From IMG/VR virus record IMGVR_UViG_2541047699_000015: a DNA stretch of 41,468 nt; one strand, 5' to 3'. This document shows, piece after piece, positions 3,159-35,839 of the stretch. The stretch comes from a virus. Taxonomy: Duplodnaviria; Heunggongvirae; Uroviricota; Caudoviricetes. Under the pieces are notes generated by a model. The model searched no databases and had not been told where the DNA came from. It worked only from the letters and a program-made list of their open reading frames with translations. The position numbers were made by a program, and so were the translations under genes. Numbering within the stretch: position 1 is the first letter of the stretch; each line of letters starts with the position of its first letter.

Positions 3159-5621
3159 TCAATTCCCTGTTAATTGCAAAACTTGCTCTTCCAGCTTTTT
3201 AACCCTGCGTCTCATCATCGCAGATTCCAGAATCAGAGCCTCTTCATAACGGATACCGTAACATTCACCAGCCTCGACGGCTTCGCGTACCAGAACCTTT
3301 GTCTGTATAAGTGGGTAAACTCCTGCAGAATGCTCTTCTTCCGTCACATCCCTGTATTCTGCCGGGGTCTCATTCCACTTGTCATAACAGATAAATGCCA
3401 GTCGTGACACATCTATGCCTTCATTCTGAAATACACTGATAACATGCTGCGCAACTGCACCAAAGTGCCATCTTGCTCCGTCTTTACCTTTCACTTCGAT
3501 CCTGTCAAGGTACTGGTATGAAACCCATTCCACTCTTTCCCATGCGTCCAGTATTTTCTCATCAATAACCTCTGGAGCAGTCTTGAAACGCGCATCGGAC
3601 AGCACCGTAAACGCTGACTGGGTAAATCCCCCCGACCATGCACGACCAGCCAACCCAAGAGAATAAGTATTCGTTGTCGATGGTGTCATGGCTGAATCAG
3701 AAAACTGTATATATTCTGAATTTCCAGTAGATATTCGAATATTTCCATTTATTAGCGACATAGTGCCTTTAGTATTATCACTATTGAATAATTTCAATTG
3801 CGAACTTATACCGCCTCCCACAGCCAGAGATACATCGCCTTCAGCAAGCATTCTGAATTTATCTGCAGAAACAAGCGTCTGGTTAGCAAGGTTAAAATAT
3901 TTAACCCACCATTCAAAACGCCCTGACATAGTCCCAACGTACTGACCAAGCGCAGGGACGTGAACAACATTGCTATTTGTAGTGCCGTCTATACTGGAAA
4001 TACCAGTCACCGCTGATGCAGAACTCAGAATATTATTTCTGTCACCCGGATGTTTAATTTCAACAAAGTTCCTGATACACCCTTCCTCGAAGGTAACCAC
4101 GCCGGAAGAACTATACATGGGGAATATTGACGCATAATTACTGCGTGCAGCATCTAAGAAACGAATGGTTGTAGATGTCTGCAGATCTCCTGATTCATTT
4201 TTCCCATCACACCCAGTCATTAGAATATTACTGGCAATATTATTATTTCCCTGAACGGTGACTCCGTGCGCCTGCTTTGCGTCCGATTCAGAGTAATCAA
4301 CCAGCACATTCGAAATCAGGTTACCAGTCCCCTTGCCAACAACTACTGCGGCGTATTTTGGGTTGTTAGCCATTACACTGCTAATGATATTATTCGTTGG
4401 GGCAGTTTCCGTCTCAGTTCCATTGTAAACAACGTGCTGACACTCTTCACCAATAACATTGCTGACAATGTTATATTTTGCTGCTGTTTTAAGTTCCACT
4501 GCACCAAACTGAGGATAATTTCTGGCTATCACACCATCAATTAGCGTATTTTGCGATGAATCAAAAAGCACACAACCTGCTTTTTTATTATTTGCGAACC
4601 CTAAATACTCTCCTCTTATATCTCTAACAATGTAACCTGACGGAATACCATTATTCGGATAAGCGATCAAGCTAAATCCTGTTCCTCGCGTATTTGTAAA
4701 TCTGATATTTTTAACCGATACATCATGGCCACCTGAAAATGACACCTGGTGTCCCTGCACACTATCATCTGATTTATTTCCCATAATTGTTAGCGTACTA
4801 AGCATGCCACCATCGGGCATGTTAAAAACCAGATGATTACCATCTCTGTCATACTGTTTTATCGTTCCCCCACCTGTTCCGTACAAGCCACAACGTGAAA
4901 GAGAAACTAAAGATGTATTGAATACCCCTTCCGGAACAAAAACACTGCTAAACGAATGTAATGATTTTGTAAAAGCATCCTTGTTATCATTTAAGATTCC
5001 ATTTTGAGCTCCAAAATCCTTAATGCTGACACCATCACGCATCTTATCCTGGAACGTTCTGTATACCGCTCCAGAACCATACTGAATAAACCAACCAAAA
5101 CCACCAATAACTCCGGCGATTGCAGCATCGACATAATTACGCATTGAGCGATTATTTACAGCGTCCTGCTCAAGTGATGGATCGGCAAGGTTAGATATTC
5201 TGTTTTGCTTTGCATCGTAATATTTTGCAAGCAAAGATGGTTTCATCAATGCACGTCTGAACCACCCAAAACATCGCTGGATCAGCATCGTCAGGTAGTC
5301 AAATGCATCCTCATGAACTTCGGGGAAAAATTTTCCCTGATTGCGAAGATCAGTCTCCTGCACCACATCAAGCACACGCTCTATCGTGATTCGCCAGCCA
5401 GCAGCAAGCGGCGACGGAAGAACCACTGCACCGCCACTATAAGTTCCCGCCCCTGTTACCGTATAACCAGCATCCAGCACTAGTTTTGTAACGTTACCGT
5501 TAAGGTCAGACACCTGAACAACCAGGTCGGATTTTTTGAAAATACGGAAGGTATACGGAAATGATGTCGTAACGCCGTTACCTGTGTATTCGTTGTGGTC
5601 AACTTCGGTTGAGACCGTCAT
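3159..5621 (-). CDS. Tailspike: T7 gp17-like N-terminal anchor, beta-helix (pectate-lyase-like) depolymerase body, C-terminal S74-type autocleaving chaperone
   Basis: N-terminus GNGVTTSFPYTFRIFKKSDLVVQV resembles T7 tail fibre N-terminal domain; Gly/Asn/Ser/Thr-rich repetitive body; C-terminal SDARFK ... WHFG motif of intramolecular chaperone; SD GGAG 8 nt before ATG 5621. Confidence 0.75.
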   Translation of the reverse strand: MTVSTEVDHNEYTGNGVTTSFPYTFRIFKKSDLVVQVSDLNGNVTKLVLDAGYTVTGAGTYSGGAVVLPSPLAAGWRITIERVLDVVQETDLRNQGKFFPEVHEDAFDYLTMLIQRCFGWFRRALMKPSLLAKYYDAKQNRISNLADPSLEQDAVNNRSMRNYVDAAIAGVIGGFGWFIQYGSGAVYRTFQDKMRDGVSIKDFGAQNGILNDNKDAFTKSLHSFSSVFVPEGVFNTSLVSLSRCGLYGTGGGTIKQYDRDGNHLVFNMPDGGMLSTLTIMGNKSDDSVQGHQVSFSGGHDVSVKNIRFTNTRGTGFSLIAYPNNGIPSGYIVRDIRGEYLGFANNKKAGCVLFDSSQNTLIDGVIARNYPQFGAVELKTAAKYNIVSNVIGEECQHVVYNGTETETAPTNNIISSVMANNPKYAAVVVGKGTGNLISNVLVDYSESDAKQAHGVTVQGNNNIASNILMTGCDGKNESGDLQTSTTIRFLDAARSNYASIFPMYSSSGVVTFEEGCIRNFVEIKHPGDRNNILSSASAVTGISSIDGTTNSNVVHVPALGQYVGTMSGRFEWWVKYFNLANQTLVSADKFRMLAEGDVSLAVGGGISSQLKLFNSDNTKGTMSLINGNIRISTGNSEYIQFSDSAMTPSTTNTYSLGLAGRAWSGGFTQSAFTVLSDARFKTAPEVIDEKILDAWERVEWVSYQYLDRIEVKGKDGARWHFGAVAQHVISVFQNEGIDVSRLAFICYDKWNETPAEYRDVTEEEHSAGVYPLIQTKVLVREAVEAGECYGIRYEEALILESAMMRRRVKKLEEQVLQLTGN

Positions 5622-5724: not shown

Positions 5725-5741
5725 ATTACCTTTCAGGTAAT
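5725..5741. promoter_or_regulatory. 17-bp operator ATTACCTTTCAGGTAAT
   Basis: Perfect ATTACC-N5-GGTAAT palindrome in the divergent region between tailspike and plus-strand island. Confidence 0.6.
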
Positions 5742-6155: not shown

Positions 6156-6194
6156 GGGCACTGGCAAAATCCAGTGCCGGGATTGGCGTCCCGG
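6156..6194 (+). ncRNA. Structured leader: two mutually exclusive hairpins
   Basis: Hairpin A GGCACTGG/CCAGTGCC (6157-6178) and hairpin B CCGGGA/TCCCGG (6177-6194) share the CCGG segment, so only one can form. Confidence 0.35.
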
Positions 6195-6212
6195 ATTACT
6201 AGTAGGCGCATA

Positions 6213-6234
6213 CCACGCCAGACGTGGTTTTTTT
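6213..6234 (+). terminator. Rho-independent terminator/attenuator in leader
   Basis: Hairpin CCACG-CCAGA-CGTGG followed by T7 run. Confidence 0.6.
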
Positions 6235-6389
6235 ATGCGTATAGCACAGTCATATCCGAATTATGGTGGGCTGGGCAGGGGCACCGAAAGGTGCGCCGGT
6301 ACCTACTAGGCCGGTACGCCAACCTTGTCCAGTTCACCACCAGCAATTGGCGTTGCGGTGGTGGGTAACTTACTAGTAGAGGTATCGCT

Positions 6390-23229: not shown

Positions 23230-23526
23230 TCACTCCTGTTCACTGGCCTCTTTGGCCATCTTCAAATACTGTTCAGGGCAATGCGCCATAACGCGCTGAA
23301 ACAGTTCCAGCGCCAGATTGCGTTGCCCCTCATTAAATGCCATTGCCATAGCGTCCATCGGTGAGATAGCGGAAAACACACGGCCTTTCTCCAGCACCGA
23401 CCAGACAACGCGACGCCCCTGTTCACTGCTCATGACAAAGCAAATGTCATCAATTTCACGCTGTGCCATGTCACGTTGCTTACGGGCGTTTTCTTCTTTC
23501 AGTTGATCGTCTTCGTAATCTGTCAT
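23230..23526 (-). CDS. Small acidic head-module protein
   Basis: 98 aa, start overlaps portal stop (ATGA). Confidence 0.5.
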   Translation of the reverse strand: MTDYEDDQLKEENARKQRDMAQREIDDICFVMSSEQGRRVVWSVLEKGRVFSAISPMDAMAMAFNEGQRNLALELFQRVMAHCPEQYLKMAKEASEQE

Positions 23527-25202
23527 TGTGATTGCCCACCCTGACCACTAACTGCATTCGCCATAGCTGACAAAACACTCGGATCCGAAGTTTTAGCTTC
23601 GCTTAGCGTCTTGGCACCCTGTGCCGCCGCCATCCCCATCGCCATCATTTGTTGCTGCTGTTGTTGCTGTGCCCGTTGCTGGCGAGCCTGCTCAACCTGT
23701 TCCTGCGGAACAATGACGGTTGGAGACACTCCGGACATATCAGCGAATGCATCGATCGCCTGATCAACGTTGAGTTTGTCGAGAGCTTCTGGTTTCGCTT
23801 GCGCAAGTTGACCAATGAAGTTGACCGTAGACGCCAGACTGGACAGGCCGATAGACTTCTGCGCCTGAGCCATGACGGAAATGTATTCGACCTTCAGGGG
23901 CATACCTTCCATCACGTCAGGCGGTGGCGGCAGCATGTTTTTACGCACCATCATCGAGAAAGCGCGGTCAATGAGAGGATTAAGACATTCGTCGTTCAGA
24001 CGCTCCAGAACCGGCCCCAACATCAGAAGTTTTTCTTCTTTCATTTCGATCACCGCTTCAACAGGCATCGAGCGGGTATTGATGTTCTGCAACATCATGA
24101 ACAGATCGACAAAGTAGGCGCTGTTAATGATTTGACGGGTGTCCTGAATGTCTGCCACCAAATCTGCTGTACTGGGGTTAACCAGATAAGCAGGCCTGAA
24201 ACCATCCTGACCAGTAATCAGATCGATATACGTGATGTCGCCAGGAAGAAGGGAGGCACGCTGATTCTTGAGGGAAGTCGGAGCAACCATCGGCGGATTG
24301 GTGGCTTTATCAATCAACTGCGACTTGCGCTTCTGGAGAAGCTGCAATGCCTTAACAGGTCCAAGCGCCAGCATACCCGGGCATGATGATCCATAAACAT
24401 CTTCGCCGTTAACTTCCCAGCGCGGAGCCATAATTGGAAACTCATCGAATCCGGACTCACGCAACAACTTGTCGTTATCGCCACCAACCTCGTAATAAAC
24501 CGATTTGAATGGCTTGTTCTTGCTATCCAGCTTCGATGTATCGCGGTCAATGTTCGGGTAAACCGAATGCATCACTTCAATCCACTTCTCGTAGGTTCCG
24601 CTTTCCCACATGCTTTTTACGGATTCGCTGACGTTATTTAGCCCGAACTCCTGAACAAGCTGACGAACAGTCATAGAGAACTTGCGAAAACAGGTGTCCA
24701 CACTGCCACGAGGTGAGTTAGCCAGGTAGTAACTGCCTATCGGGAATGGCATTGTGCGAATGATGTCCTCGTCATCCTCCAGCACTGCCATTGCACCAGT
24801 GCTGTATGTGCCGAGGCTTCCGTATAACTGCGGCAGCGACTGATAGAGATTCGACTTATTGAACATATCGTTCATGCGGTTCTGCACCGCCTCAAGCCAC
24901 AACTTAACAGGGCCATAATCCATCATTTCAGGATCTGGCGTAGCCAGGCGAAACCACGGACGCGCGGGGCTTGTGATGCCTGACATCATGCCGCTGGCGA
25001 GAGTGCGCGCCGCCATAGTCCCGGTCGAATCAATAATGCGTGTATTGCGTCGATCGTTACGGTTGACCTCAGAAGTCAGAAAGCGGGAACCACGCGGGTT
25101 GATGTAATCACTCAACTCGCGCCAGTGCGGCTCGAACGACTGACGCTCGCTTTCAAGTTGTGCGAACTGTTTGTTCAATCGCTCTTTAGTTGTTTCCGCC
25201 AT
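23523..25202 (-). CDS. Portal protein
   Basis: 559 aa, position upstream of scaffold and capsid, Gln/Ala-rich C-terminal tail; SD GGAG 8 nt before ATG 25202. Confidence 0.65.
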   Translation of the reverse strand: MAETTKERLNKQFAQLESERQSFEPHWRELSDYINPRGSRFLTSEVNRNDRRNTRIIDSTGTMAARTLASGMMSGITSPARPWFRLATPDPEMMDYGPVKLWLEAVQNRMNDMFNKSNLYQSLPQLYGSLGTYSTGAMAVLEDDEDIIRTMPFPIGSYYLANSPRGSVDTCFRKFSMTVRQLVQEFGLNNVSESVKSMWESGTYEKWIEVMHSVYPNIDRDTSKLDSKNKPFKSVYYEVGGDNDKLLRESGFDEFPIMAPRWEVNGEDVYGSSCPGMLALGPVKALQLLQKRKSQLIDKATNPPMVAPTSLKNQRASLLPGDITYIDLITGQDGFRPAYLVNPSTADLVADIQDTRQIINSAYFVDLFMMLQNINTRSMPVEAVIEMKEEKLLMLGPVLERLNDECLNPLIDRAFSMMVRKNMLPPPPDVMEGMPLKVEYISVMAQAQKSIGLSSLASTVNFIGQLAQAKPEALDKLNVDQAIDAFADMSGVSPTVIVPQEQVEQARQQRAQQQQQQQMMAMGMAAAQGAKTLSEAKTSDPSVLSAMANAVSGQGGQSQ

Positions 25203-25216
25203 TTCAATGACTCCGG

Positions 25217-25423
25217 TTACTGACCAAGCAGCGTTTTACCGCTGGTATTAGCAGTTGATGTGTCGCCCTGAGAACCGGTAAGCAGCGTAGAACTACGACC
25301 AGCAGCAGCGCGACGGCGACGAGTTTCTTCGTCGCGGGCATCAACAACGGCGGCATCCTGCTCCTGTGGTGCTGCCTGAACTTCTGGTGTTGCAGGCACT
25401 GATGGTGAGCTACCCATGCACAT
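25217..25423 (-). CDS. Small protein upstream of portal
   Basis: SD GGAG 8 nt before ATG 25423; its translation-initiation region CGGAGTCATTGA is duplicated in front of the portal gene. Confidence 0.5.
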   Translation of the reverse strand: MCMGSSPSVPATPEVQAAPQEQDAAVVDARDEETRRRRAAAGRSSTLLTGSQGDTSTANTSGKTLLGQ

Positions 25424-25491
25424 ATCAATGACTCCGTACGCAATTAAATTATTACCAATTTAACCACATATGATTTATTTATCGTAGACAG

Positions 25492-25529
25492 TTGACATTT
25501 AACGCGCGAATTATTACCTTTCAGGTAAC
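25492..25529 (+). promoter_or_regulatory. Promoter (-35 TTGACA) with overlapping operator ATTACCTTTCAGGTAAC upstream of tRNA
   Basis: TTGACA at 25492-25497; operator 25513-25529 covers -10/+1 region. Confidence 0.5.
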
Positions 25530-25850
25530 CAAAGAGTTCATTCCGGTTACTAACCTGACTGGCTTGTCGTTAAATTGAACAGGTGGAGTGAGCTTTTATT
25601 TTGAGCAGTACGGCGTATGGCACATGCGCCGATAGCGGTCTGGATGCGTTTAAGGGGCACCCTCCCTGGCTGTGGCAAACGAACCAGGTAGCCGGAATGT
25701 GCAAGTCGAGCGGTTTTATTCCGCGCACGGGGATTCACCATCCCGGCGATTCGGTGTGACGCCTCGGAAGAGACGAGGGTACAACGATGAGAGCATTTAT
25801 GGAGCCGCGACAAAGTGTGGCGCCTTAACAGGCTAAGTGCTCTCAGCGTT

Positions 25851-25927
25851 GTGGCATTAGCTCAGTTGGACAGAGCAACCGCCTTCTAAGCGGTTGGTCG
25901 CAGGTTCGAATCCTGCATGCCACGCCA
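25851..25927 (+). tRNA. tRNA-Arg (anticodon UCU), phage-encoded argU-like
   Basis: Cloverleaf read by eye: acceptor stem GTGGCAT/ATGCCAC, D-arm GCTC...GAGC, anticodon stem ACCGC/GCGGT with loop CTTCTAA (anticodon TCT at 25885-25887), T-arm GCAGG-TTCGAAT-CCTGC, discriminator G, encoded CCA. Confidence 0.9.
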
Positions 25928-25970
25928 GAATCACGCCTAAGGACCGTGATGCCAGAAGTTCCAGGTGCTT

Positions 25971-26012
25971 GGCGGTGATGGTTTCCCTTGAAGGACTATC
26001 ACCGCCCTTTTT
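25971..26012 (+). terminator. Terminator after tRNA
   Basis: Hairpin GGCGGTGAT...ATCACCGCC followed by CTTTTT. Confidence 0.55.
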
Positions 26013-26090
26013 ACAGCAGGACGCCATTGCGATGACTTCATGCTGTAAACCAGTACAGCCACGGAAGGCATAACTCATTGCTTCCAGTTC

Positions 26091-26114
26091 GCCCGGTTCG
26101 CCGGGCATTTTTTT
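26091..26114 (+). terminator. Second terminator immediately before RBS of gene 26126
   Basis: Hairpin GCCCGG-TTCG-CCGGGC followed by ATTTTTTT. Confidence 0.65.
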
Positions 26115-26125
26115 AAGGTGAGATT

Positions 26126-26548
26126 ATGAAAACAGCCGACATGCTAGCTAAATATCTAAATGAATGGCCGTGCAAATATGTACGCATTGTTCAGGGTGAT
26201 GACTCAATTTTTTATGGTGTTTTTGCAGGAAATGAAATGCTTTGTGAAGCAATTCCAGGTGAGCGACTTGCCGGGTTAACGCTTAGCGATGACCATGGAA
26301 TAGGAGTTACTTGCCATGACTGGATTTCAGCGCAGAAAACTGAAATGGAAAAAGGCAATGTGTTTGATATTTCTCGCGCTGTATACGCCAAAGAAAAAAG
26401 TGATGATGATTACATGCGCGAAAACTTATACAACATGAAGTTACAATGCCTGGCTGAAGTGCTTAGTAAAAGATCTTTACTTGATGTGGTTGGTGCTGAG
26501 CAGGACGCCAAGGCAATCAACGCCGCATTCGATAAAATAACCTTCTAA
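26126..26548 (+). CDS. Hypothetical moron protein (140 aa)
   Basis: SD AAGGTGAG before ATG 26126; opposite strand to flanking late genes; no family recognised. Confidence 0.6.
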   Translation: MKTADMLAKYLNEWPCKYVRIVQGDDSIFYGVFAGNEMLCEAIPGERLAGLTLSDDHGIGVTCHDWISAQKTEMEKGNVFDISRAVYAKEKSDDDYMRENLYNMKLQCLAEVLSKRSLLDVVGAEQDAKAINAAFDKITF

Positions 26549-26552
26549 CGCC

Positions 26553-26564
26553 GTGACATGTCAC
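26553..26564. repeat. Palindrome GTGACATGTCAC, copy 2
   Basis: Perfect copy 4 nt after stop of gene 26126-26548 and 5 nt before terminator. Confidence 0.8.
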
Positions 26565-26569
26565 AATCA

Positions 26570-26593
26570 GCCCGCCGATTCGCGGGCTTTTTT
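26570..26593 (+). terminator. Rho-independent terminator of moron
   Basis: Hairpin GCCCGC-CGATTC-GCGGGC followed by T6; overlaps stop codon of terminase large subunit on the other strand. Confidence 0.7.
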
Positions 26594-28067
26594 ATGCAAA
26601 AGGATCATAGTCTGTGATGGCTTTGCCTTGCTGGTTCTGCTGCCCAGGAATTCGCAGACGCTTCGACACAGGGAAAGCAAACGTCAGCAGTAGCGCATCG
26701 CCTTTACCCGGCGAACGCCCAAGCCGCTCCTTGATATCTTCCTTCGGTTCGATAACGATTTTACCGTCCACACGAACTTTGTACTCTGCTGCCGACAGGT
26801 CGTCCGCTGTTTCCTGGTCATCCAGCATGCCGCCGAGCCTCAGCCATGTCTTGCATGAGTTGAACATCTCCCCACGCTTGTTGAGCATCTGCGGGTCAGT
26901 AGACGCGCCACCGAACGGAACAAGTTGCCATGTACGACCCCAGCCGTCACCGATTGACTTCAAACCGGTTCCGTAACCGAAGTCGATGAACACCGCGTCA
27001 GCCTGATACTGGTCTTCAAAGTCAGCGATACGCTTCGCCATAATCAGATCGTCGGTAGTCTTGTTGCCAGTCCACAGCACCTTACTGTGTAGCCCCTGCC
27101 GCAGGTATATCACAGCGTCATCAACGCCGGAGTATGCCGGGTCAACGCCGATTATCACCGGAGCATGTGCAACCTGCGCAGCGGTTACCACCCGTTTCAT
27201 TGCCTCGTCAGTAAGACCGGTAGGGATAAACTGCAATTCAGATGCATCAGGGAATATGCCGCGCACACGGATTTTAACGAAGTCGCTATCTTCCCCGTAG
27301 TCATCAACCCATTTCTGCAACTGCTGTTTGTTAGTGCCTTCCACCGTCCGGCTGTCAATCTGCGCAGTTTTCCAGCGGTGTTTATATTTGCGGAAACATT
27401 CGCGGAAACGCCCGGTGTTACGTGTAGGGTTTCCGAACGCTACCCAGATAATCTCAGTGTCTTCGTCCGTAAGCGCACCCTCAGCAACTTCCCACACCAG
27501 ATCCGCAATGTTCGACGCTTCATCGAATACCACGATGATGCGTTTGCGCTCGTTGTGTAGTCCGGCGAACGCCTCAGTGTTGTGCTCAGACCAGGGGATT
27601 GCGTCAGCTCGCCACCGCTTGTCGTGCCCAGGGTCATTGCTGTACATCGCGGTAGCGGTACAGGTAAACCAGTCTTTCGTGATAGCAAGGTTTGACCACT
27701 TGATAATTTCCGGCCAGGTCTTCGTTCGTAGCTGGTTGTCGGTGTTGGCGGTCACCACGACCTTACAATCCTCGCAAGTGGACATGCCCCAGTTGATCAG
27801 CATTGAGATGAATGCGGATTTACCAATACCGTGACCAGAAGCACGTGCCAGCATAAGCGGCTGATATCGCGTCTCTGGATTCTGCAGGTGATCACGTATC
27901 TCTCGGAACGCATCAGCCTGCCACTGACGTGGGCCGGTGGCATGTGCCAGTTCAGTCCCCTCTTCCCCCCATGGGAACGCATAGAGGGCATAGCCAAGCG
28001 GATCGTGAGTGAACCCTGCAATATCCTCGATTAACTGCTCTTCAGGAGATAACGCTGTATCTGTCAC
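26592..28067 (-). CDS. Terminase large subunit
   Basis: 491 aa; Walker A-like ASGHGIGKSAF; acidic nuclease-type C-terminal half; overlaps small subunit gene by 4 nt. Confidence 0.8.
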   Translation of the reverse strand: MTDTALSPEEQLIEDIAGFTHDPLGYALYAFPWGEEGTELAHATGPRQWQADAFREIRDHLQNPETRYQPLMLARASGHGIGKSAFISMLINWGMSTCEDCKVVVTANTDNQLRTKTWPEIIKWSNLAITKDWFTCTATAMYSNDPGHDKRWRADAIPWSEHNTEAFAGLHNERKRIIVVFDEASNIADLVWEVAEGALTDEDTEIIWVAFGNPTRNTGRFRECFRKYKHRWKTAQIDSRTVEGTNKQQLQKWVDDYGEDSDFVKIRVRGIFPDASELQFIPTGLTDEAMKRVVTAAQVAHAPVIIGVDPAYSGVDDAVIYLRQGLHSKVLWTGNKTTDDLIMAKRIADFEDQYQADAVFIDFGYGTGLKSIGDGWGRTWQLVPFGGASTDPQMLNKRGEMFNSCKTWLRLGGMLDDQETADDLSAAEYKVRVDGKIVIEPKEDIKERLGRSPGKGDALLLTFAFPVSKRLRIPGQQNQQGKAITDYDPFA

Positions 28068-28663
28068 TGATTGCCATCCTGACGTTCTTTCAGTCTCTTC
28101 CTGGCTGCCGCTATGCGATCAGCAATTGTCACATTCACATTAACATCCAGGCGTTCTTTGAATGCGTTGACGTCGACGTGCTTACCAATCAGTTCGAGGT
28201 TCTTCACCTTGTCAGGCCATTTAATTTTTTTGAGGATGCCAACCAGCTCTTTCTCGTCTCCACGGCCTTCGAACATGTCGGCCAGTTCGAAACCTGTCAG
28301 GTACTGCCGCCAGACCTTAGGCCATTCCGAGACCGGCTTGATGCTCATATCGTCGTTGAGAATGTCAATCACGTCCATCTGGTCGATCTCCACCAGGCGC
28401 ATGAGAACGTAATCAGCACTGACGCGCATTCGTTTGTTGCGCTCCTCCATCAACTCGGCAATCCGTTTTTGAATGCGTTCATCGCGCATCATGACACTGG
28501 CTTTAACTGCCGCTGTATTTGGGGAGAATCCTGCGTTAATCGCTGCCTGAGTCTGGTTTTCAGGCGTTTTGATGTATGACTGGCAATAAGCCTCCTGCAT
28601 TGCTGTTAGTGGCTTAAATTGCGTTGATTTGCGTTTATAGGTTTTAGGTTCAGCAGGCATCAT
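28064..28663 (-). CDS. Terminase small subunit
   Basis: About 200 aa directly upstream of and overlapping large subunit; start at tandem ATG 28663/28660 (track start 28741 is TTG). Confidence 0.65.
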   Translation of the reverse strand: MMPAEPKTYKRKSTQFKPLTAMQEAYCQSYIKTPENQTQAAINAGFSPNTAAVKASVMMRDERIQKRIAELMEERNKRMRVSADYVLMRLVEIDQMDVIDILNDDMSIKPVSEWPKVWRQYLTGFELADMFEGRGDEKELVGILKKIKWPDKVKNLELIGKHVDVNAFKERLDVNVNVTIADRIAAARKRLKERQDGNQ

Positions 28664-28696
28664 AACCACCGTGGTAATAGTTACCGTTGTGGTAAT
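28662..28696. promoter_or_regulatory. Tandem operators at start of late (terminase) operon
   Basis: GTTACCGTTGTGGTAAT (28680-28696) and ATAACCACCGTGGTAAT (28662-28678), the latter overlapping the terS start codon. Confidence 0.55.
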
Positions 28697-28704
28697 AGTA
28701 CCAT

Positions 28705-28732
28705 GCAAAATAAAGCCGCCATAGTTGGCGGC
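28705..28732 (-). terminator. Terminator between early operon and terminase genes
   Basis: Minus-strand hairpin GCCGCC-AACTAT-GGCGGC followed by TTTATTTTG. Confidence 0.6.
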
Positions 28733-28773
28733 AGTATTCAAAACCCATCAAATTCATCATGCATAACCCACTC

Positions 28774-31334: not shown

Positions 31335-31768
31335 TGGTTGCCTCCTTTGCGAAGCTGGGCGGCTAACTCATCACATATGTGCGTCAAAGAACAAAGTTTG
31401 ATTGATGGATGTTCGCGCATCATCTCTACCCCCTGCGCCCGCACTTCAGACAGGAAAGCATCGGTGTCTGGCATATTTCCTGTTGCCTTCATTGCCTCCA
31501 AAATAACCAGAACGCCATCTCGCCCAATCTCCTCGCAGATAACCTCGGTGCTGTCGCCAACAACATCGCAAAATGCCTGAACTGCTTTACGAGCCAGCGC
31601 ATTCTCCGCAGCCAGCGCATTAGCACGCACCAGTTGCACTTCCAGCTGCGTTGCCAAATCGCTGATCAGCTTTGCCACACTGCGCATATCAACGGCACCA
31701 CATTCTGCTTTCAGTTCCGAAGCCATCTCATGCCCGGCGGAAACTAACCCTTTGATATTACTTTCCAT
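31331..31768 (-). CDS. Hypothetical early protein
   Basis: 145 aa ORF in early operon; no family recognised. Confidence 0.5.
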   Translation of the reverse strand: MESNIKGLVSAGHEMASELKAECGAVDMRSVAKLISDLATQLEVQLVRANALAAENALARKAVQAFCDVVGDSTEVICEEIGRDGVLVILEAMKATGNMPDTDAFLSEVRAQGVEMMREHPSIKLCSLTHICDELAAQLRKGGNQ

Positions 31769-31818
31769 CTTTACCCTCGCTTATCCACATAACTTATTGA
31801 TTACATTGATAACTAAAA

Positions 31819-31847
31819 AGATCGTCGATTCATGCCGATCTATTTTT
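31819..31847. terminator. Hairpin terminator overlapping HNH gene stop
   Basis: AGATCG-loop-CGATCT flanked by A5 and T5 runs. Confidence 0.45.
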
Positions 31848-32438
31848 CATCAGTGATTCATAAAACTTTTGCCACTTATGCCGACCGAAATTAGCCTTCG
31901 AGTTACAGCTCGAACAAAGGCAAATAAGGTTCTCCTGACGACAATCTTGCTTGTCGTAATTGATGTGATGAGTTGTTAGCCTTTTGTCTGTTCCATCACA
32001 ACCTGGGTTCTGACAAGTAAAACCATCTCGCTCAATAACCCTCTTGCTCGTTTCTCGGAAATCCCACGGATACGGCAATCTCGATAATCCACCAGACCAG
32101 TTTGGATTTCCTTCCCCCTTCATCAGAGAAGAACGCATTATGTTGGAACACTGTTTCGAGCAGCATTTATGACGCTTCTCATGACTCAAGAAAACGGAGA
32201 ACGAAGATCCGCATACGCAGCATATTTTTAATACTCGCTTTAGTTCCCGATTTACCGTCTTGCCTCGCTGTGAAATTCCTACACACTGAAGTGAGCAGAA
32301 CCTTGAAGATGAGTTGGCTCGCTTAACCTGATATTGCCTGCCACATACGGAGCAAACCTTTTCGATTTTCCCACCCTTCCAATTCGGGTTTTTATCACCG
32401 GATACAATCAATCCCGCAGCATTGGGCTTCTCGCTCAT
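31830..32438 (-). CDS. HNH endonuclease with multiple Cys zinc-binding motifs
   Basis: CxxC pairs and HHINYDKQDCRQENLICLCSSCNSK (HNH motif). Confidence 0.75.
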   Translation of the reverse strand: MSEKPNAAGLIVSGDKNPNWKGGKIEKVCSVCGRQYQVKRANSSSRFCSLQCVGISQRGKTVNRELKRVLKICCVCGSSFSVFLSHEKRHKCCSKQCSNIMRSSLMKGEGNPNWSGGLSRLPYPWDFRETSKRVIERDGFTCQNPGCDGTDKRLTTHHINYDKQDCRQENLICLCSSCNSKANFGRHKWQKFYESLMKNRSA

Positions 32439-35254: not shown

Positions 35255-35839
35255 ATGAAAAGTATCCAGGACGTCCGCAGGCAAAATCTCAACGACTTGA
35301 TCGACCGTGAATTCAATGGTGTTCAGACGCGGATGGCAGAAAAACTTGGAACTCAGGCAAATCTGGTAAACCGCTGGGCTCTTGGCAAGAAGGTTATCGG
35401 CGACCAGGTTGCGCGAAAAATTGAAGCTGCCGCCAATAAACCCCGTAACTGGCTTGATATCGATCGCTCGCTTTCTCAGGAAGGTTTTCAGCCTGTCGGC
35501 CCAAGCGACATTGGTCAGCTGGCAGCTCACAACCTGGAACGCTGGATGAGTGAAAGCCGCGACCTTTCAACTCAGGGAAAACTTCACCGCGCATCCGGCG
35601 TCGCCCAGGTGACAATAAGCCGCCTGTTAAACAATGAGGTCAGCGTTTCCATTTCCACCCTGGAGAATGTTGCATCTGCATTCGGGCGTCACGGATATGA
35701 ACTACTGATTCATCCGCATGACCCTGCGACCATCAACTATGATCGCTCGCGCTACGCATTGTTACCCGAAACCGAGAAAGCAAAGATCGAAAGTTACATT
35801 GAATTTGTCATCAACCAGAACGAAAAAAACAAACAATAA
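35255..35839 (+). CDS. CI-like prophage repressor with two tandem HTH (XRE-type) domains, no peptidase domain
   Basis: HTH1 about residues 20-60 (QTRMAEKLGTQANLVNRW), HTH2 about 110-150 (LHRASGVAQVTISRLLNN); 194 aa; no LexA-like Ser/Lys autocleavage module. Confidence 0.65.
   Translation: MKSIQDVRRQNLNDLIDREFNGVQTRMAEKLGTQANLVNRWALGKKVIGDQVARKIEAAANKPRNWLDIDRSLSQEGFQPVGPSDIGQLAAHNLERWMSESRDLSTQGKLHRASGVAQVTISRLLNNEVSVSISTLENVASAFGRHGYELLIHPHDPATINYDRSRYALLPETEKAKIESYIEFVINQNEKNKQ

Follow-up and report, generated by a model that had tools for sequence, protein, structure and literature searches.

What does the plus-strand insert between the large terminase and portal genes of a phiV10-like phage encode, and what occupies the approximately 330 nucleotides (nt) between its promoter and its tRNA gene? 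The window, which is the whole stretch of DNA analyzed here (41,468 nt; IMG/VR virus record IMGVR_UViG_2541047699_000015), was assigned to a phiV10/epsilon15-like podovirus of the genus Uetakevirus. A sequence-only reading of the window had described the insert as a tRNA-Arg(UCU) moron lying antisense within the late operon, with an operator-controlled promoter, tandem terminators and one plus-strand gene, and had suggested that further RNA elements might lie between promoter and tRNA. All of these features were found where the reading had placed them, in an insert antisense between large terminase and portal (Table 1), and this observation was confirmed overall; the interpretation is partly supported, its ordinary parts being right and its interesting part incomplete. 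The suggestion of further RNA elements proved correct and became the main result. As judged by sequence comparison, the promoter-tRNA region is no passive tRNA leader but an independent, widely shared structured RNA (hereafter, the core), and the tRNA is only one of the elements that can fill a slot within a larger, modular non-coding cassette.

Structure and conservation of the RNA core

Homologous loci (designated by L numbers) were aligned as 66 representatives sharing less than 92% identity, two of which were chance pattern matches and not homologues, and a covariance model (R1) was built from the remaining 64 sequences. The alignment consisted of near-invariant blocks separated by variable hairpins of differing length, and the structure derived from it by hand comprised five helices (P1-P5) and an H-type pseudoknot within about 170 nt. 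On this structure, 93.8% of 1770 cells were standard pairs, compared with 28-49% when the partners were slid by 1-3 columns. Compensatory changes on both sides were present in 16 of the 27 pairs (141 cells), and the observed covariation was reached by 0 of 500 shuffles on four of five measures and by 2 of 500 on the fifth. The pseudoknot changed in the same manner, CACC/GGUG being replaced by AACC/GGUU in six representatives. The fold was assigned to the plus strand because many of its G-U pairs would become A-C mismatches on the opposite strand. Since block spacing spread evenly over 0, 1 and 2 modulo 3 among the 64 homologues, no conserved reading frame is present, which confirmed and strengthened the earlier statement that the 330 nt hold no convincing open reading frame (ORF).

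The R1 model scored 147 bits in the window and found one copy in nearly every locus searched and two in L055, where one viral contig has tandem co-oriented cores (4796-4974 and 3989-4169, both on the minus strand) separated by about 630 nt. The core of the window was about 81% identical to the lambdoid cdtI type and 72-74% identical to those of SPN1S or Tyrion. Together with the compensating pseudoknot, an 18-nt strand gives the core unusually strong backing from sequence comparison: it did not vary among the copies sampled, which ranged from prophages of Enterobacteriaceae to phages of Stenotrophomonas, an invariance partly due to selection because the same strand served as a search probe.

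Downstream of the core, a long closing stem (P6) was folded separately for each sequence with shuffled controls. A stem of 15-19 bp was kept in 20 of 20 distinct sequence variants around an interior of 30-200 nt, with energies of -15 to -34 kcal/mol versus -4 to -11 kcal/mol with shuffled 3' strands, and its register shifted by 1 nt between subclasses. The last G of P6 in the window (25851) doubles as nucleotide 1 of the tRNA. Upstream of the core, the leader hairpin is weakly related to the long-stem modules of relatives.

Searches with Rfam 15 gave only the tRNA in 25400-26140 at E values up to 10 and nothing on the element in 11 homologous loci at E values up to 1; by gathering-score and permissive searches of the window and of these 11 plus 4 homologous loci, the core belongs to no Rfam family. 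A full-text literature search for the invariant sequence GUAGCCGGAAUGUGCAAG returned no paper, and the element was absent from the results of searches for related descriptions, from a genome-language-model preprint and from a 50-genome survey of new RNAs. ROOL and GOLLD, structured RNAs of 500-800 nt, reside in prophages, frequently as neighbors of tRNA genes, and are known mainly from Firmicutes and related groups; unlike these, the core is far smaller, resides in enterobacterial phages and has no Rfam match. On the comparative evidence, we regard the core as a new and well-supported RNA family.

Distribution and genomic contexts

Sensitive BLAST with 25560-25850 as a query gave 92 phage records, including phages unrelated to the Uetakeviruses. 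The core was found in the lambdoid phages cdtI, PhiR63_1, 2H10, Ayreon and mEp390, in Stx2c phages and some Stx2a phages, in P1, P7, D6 and other phage-plasmids, in Klebsiella prophages, in the virulent Klebsiella phage SopranoGao, and in two Stenotrophomonas phages. A 251-nt query (25600-25850) matched 1840 of 5426 complete Escherichia coli genomes, with at least 80% query coverage in 1472. Pattern scans added 24 species-level genomes, nearly all of Enterobacteriaceae or close relatives (two further matches were non-homologous), and more than 120 viral contigs. In prophage CPS-53 of E. coli K-12, homologues of yfdP/yfdQ were present and the core was absent. The core is almost nowhere annotated in the records listed from the E. 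coli search, and no genome annotation examined names it. It is common, occurring in roughly one quarter to one third of the complete E. coli genomes, in P1-type phage-plasmids, in Stx2c and cdtI toxin phages, and in Klebsiella prophages.

Contexts of the core were compared in three unrelated phage types. In Uetakeviruses, it stands under its own operator-bearing promoter, antisense between terminase and portal. In lambdoid phages, the order is cI (encoding helix-turn-helix [HTH] and Peptidase_S24 domains), a terminator, a PL-like promoter with operators, and the core; the promoter ahead of the cdtI core reads TTGACA-16-CATAAT, matching at 11 of 12 positions, and the first gene after the leader was not N-like in the examples read, being yfdP-like or an unrelated small ORF. 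In phages P1 and P7, the core begins 15 nt after trnI and ends about 100 nt before ban, within the C1-controlled ban operon, which in P1 also includes trnA, trnT and a dicF-like region. Because it is so placed in all three types, the core is probably part of a repressor-controlled early transcript, its early expression being deduced from promoter and operon position. In the P1 locus (L006, 3485-3686), the core fills most of the unannotated trnI-ban gap without P6, and the ribosome-binding site (RBS) of ban lies within about 90 nt.

Promoter and dispersed operator

The TTGACA promoter overlapped by an operator, as proposed by the earlier reading, was borne out by the sequence and by site counts. 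When up to one mismatch was allowed, the palindrome TTACC-N5-GGTAA was counted 14 times in the window, compared with 0.67 expected, and 0 of 100 shuffles reached 14. Clusters of these sites flank an HTH repressor candidate (35255-35839), and the GenBank record of epsilon15 labels an identical palindrome as a repressor site. From this pattern, TTACC-N5-GGTAA is a dispersed operator of the phage repressor. The promoter-operator module was kept in most of the listed Uetakevirus-type copies, and the upstream operator-like site in all Uetakevirus-type upstream regions. Since the promoter carries a conserved phage operator, the unit would be silent in lysogens and, as the earlier reading had reasonably supposed, switched on at derepression.

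Two side observations concern the operator. Its dispersed pattern is reminiscent of the dispersed C1 operators of P1, and the site at 28681 falls within the start of a candidate small-terminase ORF (28064-28741, minus strand).

The tRNA and codon usage

The argU-like tRNA-Arg(UCU) passed the check by tRNA predictors proposed with the earlier reading: it was recognized by ARAGORN and by the Rfam tRNA model, which gave 73.3 bits at 25851-25927 against a gathering score of 29. With argU of E. coli K-12 it shares 82% identity and the same D-arm, anticodon loop and T-arm; where the acceptor and anticodon stems of the two differ, the changes compensate each other. The gene ends in GCCA. The ZX5 paper mentions one tRNA (PMC9782041). 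Because the tRNA is already annotated in relatives, this part of the insert is ordinary and known in kind, and the tRNA moron itself adds little.

In E. coli K-12, AGA and AGG account for about 2 and about 1.2-1.5 per 1000 codons, respectively. In 50 ORFs of the window, the corresponding values were 7.1 and 4.3 per 1000 codons (12% and 7% of arginine codons). The expected AGA enrichment was thus present in the ORFs of the window, but was weaker in the late structural genes, at 5.2 per 1000 against 8.9 per 1000 for the remainder. An 820-aa ORF (3159-5621, minus strand) held 13 AGA codons, the top count among the genes of the window.

Phage tRNA morons such as ileZ-argN-argO upstream of stx in Stx phages, and trnA/trnT/trnI of P1, likewise provide rare-codon tRNAs with their own transcription signals. 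Matches to tRNA-Arg were obtained in Stx phages, and P1 carries its tRNAs and the core in one operon. Unlike such morons, the tRNA of the window is just one exchangeable occupant of the modular cassette introduced above.

Modular organization of the leader

Leaders of the 64 representatives were compared by a census of pattern counts, and promoter and terminator layouts were read directly from the sequences. The recurring downstream order was core, P6, tRNA-Arg or another domain, an AUCACG...CGUGAU hairpin, and a conserved terminator. The tRNA-Arg followed P6 in 7 representatives, and pattern matches to a domain of 85-210 nt closed by GUGGUG/CACCAC were found in the tRNA slot of 35. This domain (GTGGTGAATGCGCAGGCTGATGCGC...GCCGGAGATCAGCACCGGCCACCAC; L003, L005, L011, L012 and others) and the tRNA both begin with GTGG at the same nucleotide. 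Members of the terminator-1 family were located within 1 kb downstream of the core in 39 of the representatives. In L118, L061 and L075, a hairpin and an rrn-type boxA take the place of P6 directly after P5, so that signals of the Nus antitermination type adjoin the core; boxA has the exact consensus TGCTCTTTAACAA in L118 and is near-perfect in L061 and L075, and the census detected it beside the core in these three loci only.

Other RNA cargo travels with the core, including tRNAs, the dicF-like region in P1, and a sequence resembling the 3' end of RprA in relatives. An exact copy of 16-24 nt from nt 59-82 of E. coli RprA (AATTGCTGTGTGTAGTCTTTGCCC) precedes the leader terminator in at least 25 related loci, where the phages may be mimicking the 3' end of RprA. 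This motif is missing from the window, which carries a different sequence at 25951-25970.

Related leaders also exist without the core. Phage LLS (L163) has the same leader layout, an RprA-like terminator and downstream genes of the yfdP/yfdQ family, and no P1-P5 core. Its cI-yfdP gap of 629 nt (31731-32358, minus strand) contains a PL-like promoter, a terminator-like hairpin and two or three long-stem modules closed by CACAAC...GTTGTG; such closing sequences are met again between modules at many loci, where they may mark sites of processing or joints left by recombination. In epsilon15 (L007), a deletion has left a remnant at 2534-2625 (40.6 bits) in which helix P1 and one half of P2 are joined to the 3' half of terminator 1, the tRNA and the remaining core having been lost. 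Sites for RNase III and IHF are annotated at this remnant in the epsilon15 record, on the late-gene strand. Because most copies have no tRNA and related leaders lack the core, the core is likely to be an optional, mobile module. Early leaders of this kind are modular RNA cassettes in which tRNAs, long-stem modules and mimics of host small RNAs are swapped, a little-described layer of phage mosaicism.

Possible functions of the core

The explanation that we favor, tentatively and with less than even confidence, is that the insert is an early repressor-controlled RNA cassette whose core is an accessory stable RNA binding a conserved host component. Upon derepression, sigma-70 RNA polymerase would start at about 25527 and produce a non-coding precursor of about 485 nt, ending mostly at terminator 1 and containing, in this order, the leader hairpin, the pseudoknotted core, P6, tRNA-Arg(UCU) and a small hairpin. 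Cutting by RNase P at the tRNA 5' end (25850/25851) would free the tRNA, which may supplement the decoding of AGA-rich phage genes, and the same cut would liberate the upstream structured RNA. This release is proposed by analogy with the C4 RNA of P1 and P7 and the CI RNA of P4, stable regulatory RNAs that are cut from the leaders of early or immunity operons by host RNase P. C4 and CI are about 80 nt, tRNA-like and antisense with known targets, whereas the core is larger and pseudoknotted. C4 RNA itself was detected by Rfam elsewhere in the window and in several core-bearing relatives. The invariant single strand of the core could bind a component conserved across gamma-proteobacteria and thereby aid early phage development, and the cargo ORF behind two terminators would be expressed only from read-through transcripts.

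Several points weigh against this explanation. Action of the core in trans is wholly an inference. Complementarity of the invariant strand and the other conserved single strands to 16S, 23S and 5S rRNA was within that of shuffled controls, as it was for tRNA-Glu, the ssrA region, RNase P RNA, 6S RNA and the rrn leader and spacer; a single 8-nt match in this comparison was within chance expectation. Because this search of stable host RNAs was negative, a target among them is unlikely, and a protein partner is likelier than an RNA partner. The cores of phage P1 and L099 run straight into an RBS and a gene, with no terminator or tRNA as a 3' end. In the lambdoid copies L021, L065 and L146, the predicted transcript start coincides with the first nucleotides of helix P1, which gives these copies a put-like look. 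Finally, genes behind terminators without a visible promoter, in the window and in cdtI-type phages, call for a read-through mechanism.

Some of these points would be accounted for if the core acted in cis to bring about processive antitermination, in the way of HK022 put, Bacillus EAR or lambda nut, which is the main rival but on balance an unlikely one. The nascent core would bind polymerase, alone or with Nus factors, and carry it past terminators 1 and 2 into the cargo ORF or, in lambdoid phages without a gene at the position of lambda N, past the leader terminator into the early-left operon. The core does occupy the nutL/putL position just after PL with no protein gene between promoter and terminator, helix P1 is the transcript 5' end in some copies, and co-oriented promoterless genes stand behind intrinsic terminators in the window, the conserved terminator being shared by the 39 relatives counted above. 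The rrn-type boxA after P5 in three loci is consistent with the same role, and the P5 loop GAAGAGA starts like the lambda nutL boxB loop, which was verified as GAAGA. Casjens and colleagues stated that such phages without an N homologue have no known early antitermination device, and described LLS as lacking an N homologue and possibly using a put-like RNA (PMC12315714). A core had been expected in LLS; its absence there, where leader terminators and downstream genes are kept, weakened this reading, and the core has been lost in epsilon15. The likeness to lambda nutL and the rrn boxB-boxA leaders in the early-left position is offset by the lack of an N-like gene after the core, and the resemblance rests on five loop nucleotides; the window region has neither boxA nor an N-like ORF between promoter and terminators, so that a lambda-type nut arrangement was not found. 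HK022 put, like the core, lies just downstream of a repressor-controlled early promoter in a lambdoid phage without N protein. However, each phage has two put RNAs, which measure about 70 nt and consist of two stems and a short triplex (PMC9378689), whereas the core, with its five helices and pseudoknot, occurs once per phage and never on the early-right (PR) side, unlike put and nut. Homology with put was rejected, as R1 gave no match in HK022 22-30 kb, a segment that takes in the nun-cI interval, the core has no sequence similarity to that interval, and the architecture differs. Moreover, termination-resistant polymerase would run antisense into the terminase genes of the window.

The core might instead be a self-cleaving ribozyme or dedicated processing module that cuts the early transcript into tRNA, small RNAs and mRNA. 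The invariant strand and the pseudoknot recall catalytic cores, and the core adjoins tRNAs, on either side in different phages, within arrays of RNA modules bounded by long stems; yet no known ribozyme class was matched in Rfam, 170 nt is large for a self-cleaving ribozyme, no conserved junction marking a cleavage site was identified, and the known cases of such processing need no more than host RNase P, RNase E and RNase III, which makes this reading improbable. We consider it very improbable that the core is a riboswitch-like sensor coupling a host metabolite or signal to early gene expression: its 5' leader position, its conserved pocket-like pseudoknotted core and the downstream terminators would suit such a sensor, but the downstream genes are unrelated from copy to copy, neither a terminator nor an RBS overlaps the core, which is set apart from the terminator by a 70-nt stem (P6) plus a tRNA or other domain, and Rfam gave no match. 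Neither of these two readings found positive support. That the region is a mere tRNA-precursor leader, a small protein gene, or a DNA site such as pac or an origin, with no RNA function of its own, is largely refuted and scarcely probable. It was suggested by the tRNA directly downstream and the terminase genes nearby in the window, and by small hypothetical ORFs annotated over the core in some records; however, the tRNA is missing from most copies, the annotated ORFs differ in strand and frame, the block spacings are not multiples of three, compensatory changes and strand-specific G-U pairs indicate selection on an RNA fold, and in lambdoid phages and P1 the surroundings of the core have nothing to do with DNA packaging. 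A protein-coding reading in particular was ruled out by the modulo-3 spacing and the inconsistent ORF annotations in relatives. Taken more broadly, the proposal that the core is a new RNA class acting on host transcription or RNA-processing machinery without a dedicated protein, whether by RNA-only or Nus-assisted antitermination or as a self-processing ribozyme, is doubtful.

The core lies where temperate phages take early regulatory decisions, in phages without a known early antitermination mechanism. If true, the antitermination version would stand in for N-nut in a large lambdoid group with no gene at the N position, and also in P1 and phiV10-like phages; either antitermination or a ribozyme would supply a mechanism for a module widespread in E. 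coli.

Terminators, cargo ORF and surrounding genes

The coordinates of all features are collected in Table 1. Both tandem terminators named in the sequence-only reading were present, and a third was found. Opposite in strand to the late genes, the insert has an operator-bearing promoter of its own as well as three terminators and so deserves the term moron, as it does by its variable content, the cargo ORF differing among otherwise collinear relatives and epsilon15 having neither the tRNA nor most of the core.

The region 25204-26620 was 97.9% identical to Escherichia phage PAS61, and its first 921 bases were 98-99% identical to phiV10, O157 typing phages 9 and 10, TL-2011b and ZX5. A 100% match was located in the chromosome of E. 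coli MCJCHV-1. Homology to most relatives breaks at the start codon of the cargo ORF, which is common to PAS61 and HEMP4 only; other relatives hold different ORFs there, including Pfam Phage_gp49_66 in typing phage 9 and, according to record annotations, proteins with a DUF551 domain in Tyrion and with a DUF2829 domain in a Klebsiella phage. Because the cargo varies between close relatives, this ORF slot is moron-like. The cargo ORF of the window had no Pfam match. As noted in the earlier reading, it has an RBS and no obvious promoter; none convincing was found between terminators 1 and 2.

Table 1. Positions of features in the window and of RprA-like copies in related loci (L numbers)
Feature	Position	Strand	Remarks
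Portal gene	23523-25202	-	Pfam Head-tail_con, E=3e-187
68-aa ORF	25217-25423	-	
Upstream operator-like site AATTATTACCAATTTAACC	25447-25465	+	AATTATTACC in common with main operator
-35 hexamer TTGACA	25492-25497	+	17-nt spacer to -10; TTGACA/TTGACN equally distant from operator in most listed Uetakevirus-type copies
Operator palindrome TTACCTTTCAGGTAA	25514-25528	+	Overlaps -10 hexamer; identical copy at 5726-5740
-10 hexamer TACCTT	25515-25520	+	Inside operator palindrome
5' leader hairpin	25530-25597 (arms 25530-25544 / 25582-25597)	+	RNAfold minimum free energy and upstream comparison; weakly supported
Conserved structured RNA core, P1-P5	25611-25778	+	Alignments
P1	25611-25631	+	
P2	25638-25643 with 25684-25689	+	Variable distal part
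Invariant 18-nt strand GUAGCCGGAAUGUGCAAG	25688-25705	+	
P3	25708-25726	+	Variable
P4	25730-25733 with 25741-25744	+	
Pseudoknot	25736-25739 with 25753-25756	+	P4 loop CACC with GGUG
P5	25762-25778	+	Conserved loop GAAGAGA
P6, long closing stem	25782-25800 with 25833-25851 (span 25782-25851)	+	Hypervariable interior
tRNA-Arg(UCU), argU-like	25851-25927	+	ARAGORN, anticodon TCT; CCA encoded; sole tRNA in window
Hairpin ATCACG-CCTAAGGAC-CGTGAT	25930-25950	+	Pattern matches in 26/64 representatives
Terminator 1	25971-26012	+	GGCGGT...ACCGCC then CTTTTT, 14-bp stem; end of non-coding unit
Inter-terminator segment	26013-26114	+	Hairpin GGAAG...CTTCC just before terminator 2; kept in epsilon15
Terminator 2	26091-26114	+	
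Cargo ORF, 140 aa	26126-26548	+	phrog_4846, E=8e-87; RBS AAGGTGAG upstream
Terminator 3	26569-26593	+	Closes plus-strand insert ahead of minus-strand terminase gene
Large terminase	26592-28067	-	Name taken from annotation of relatives
Exact operator sites	5726, 6107, 7681, 25514, 28681, 32792, 32854, 35185, 35897, 35959		
One-mismatch operator sites	5494, 28663, 34800, 35137		
RprA-like copy	L004 3204-3227; L013 2908-2923; L042 9199-9214; L163 31924-31947 (-)		

The layout of the inter-terminator segment resembles the 3' end of an Hfq-type small RNA; in this segment, Rfam gave nothing beyond weak, chance-level matches. Elsewhere in the window, at 6158-6344 on the plus strand, Rfam identified the Hfq-binding RNA isrK (6158-6234, 68 bits) directly followed by the C4 antisense RNA (6259-6344, 77 bits), a pair that constitutes an antirepressor control module of the P1 immI type and that was also present in the early-right operons of the core-bearing lambdoid phages L003, L008 and L014.

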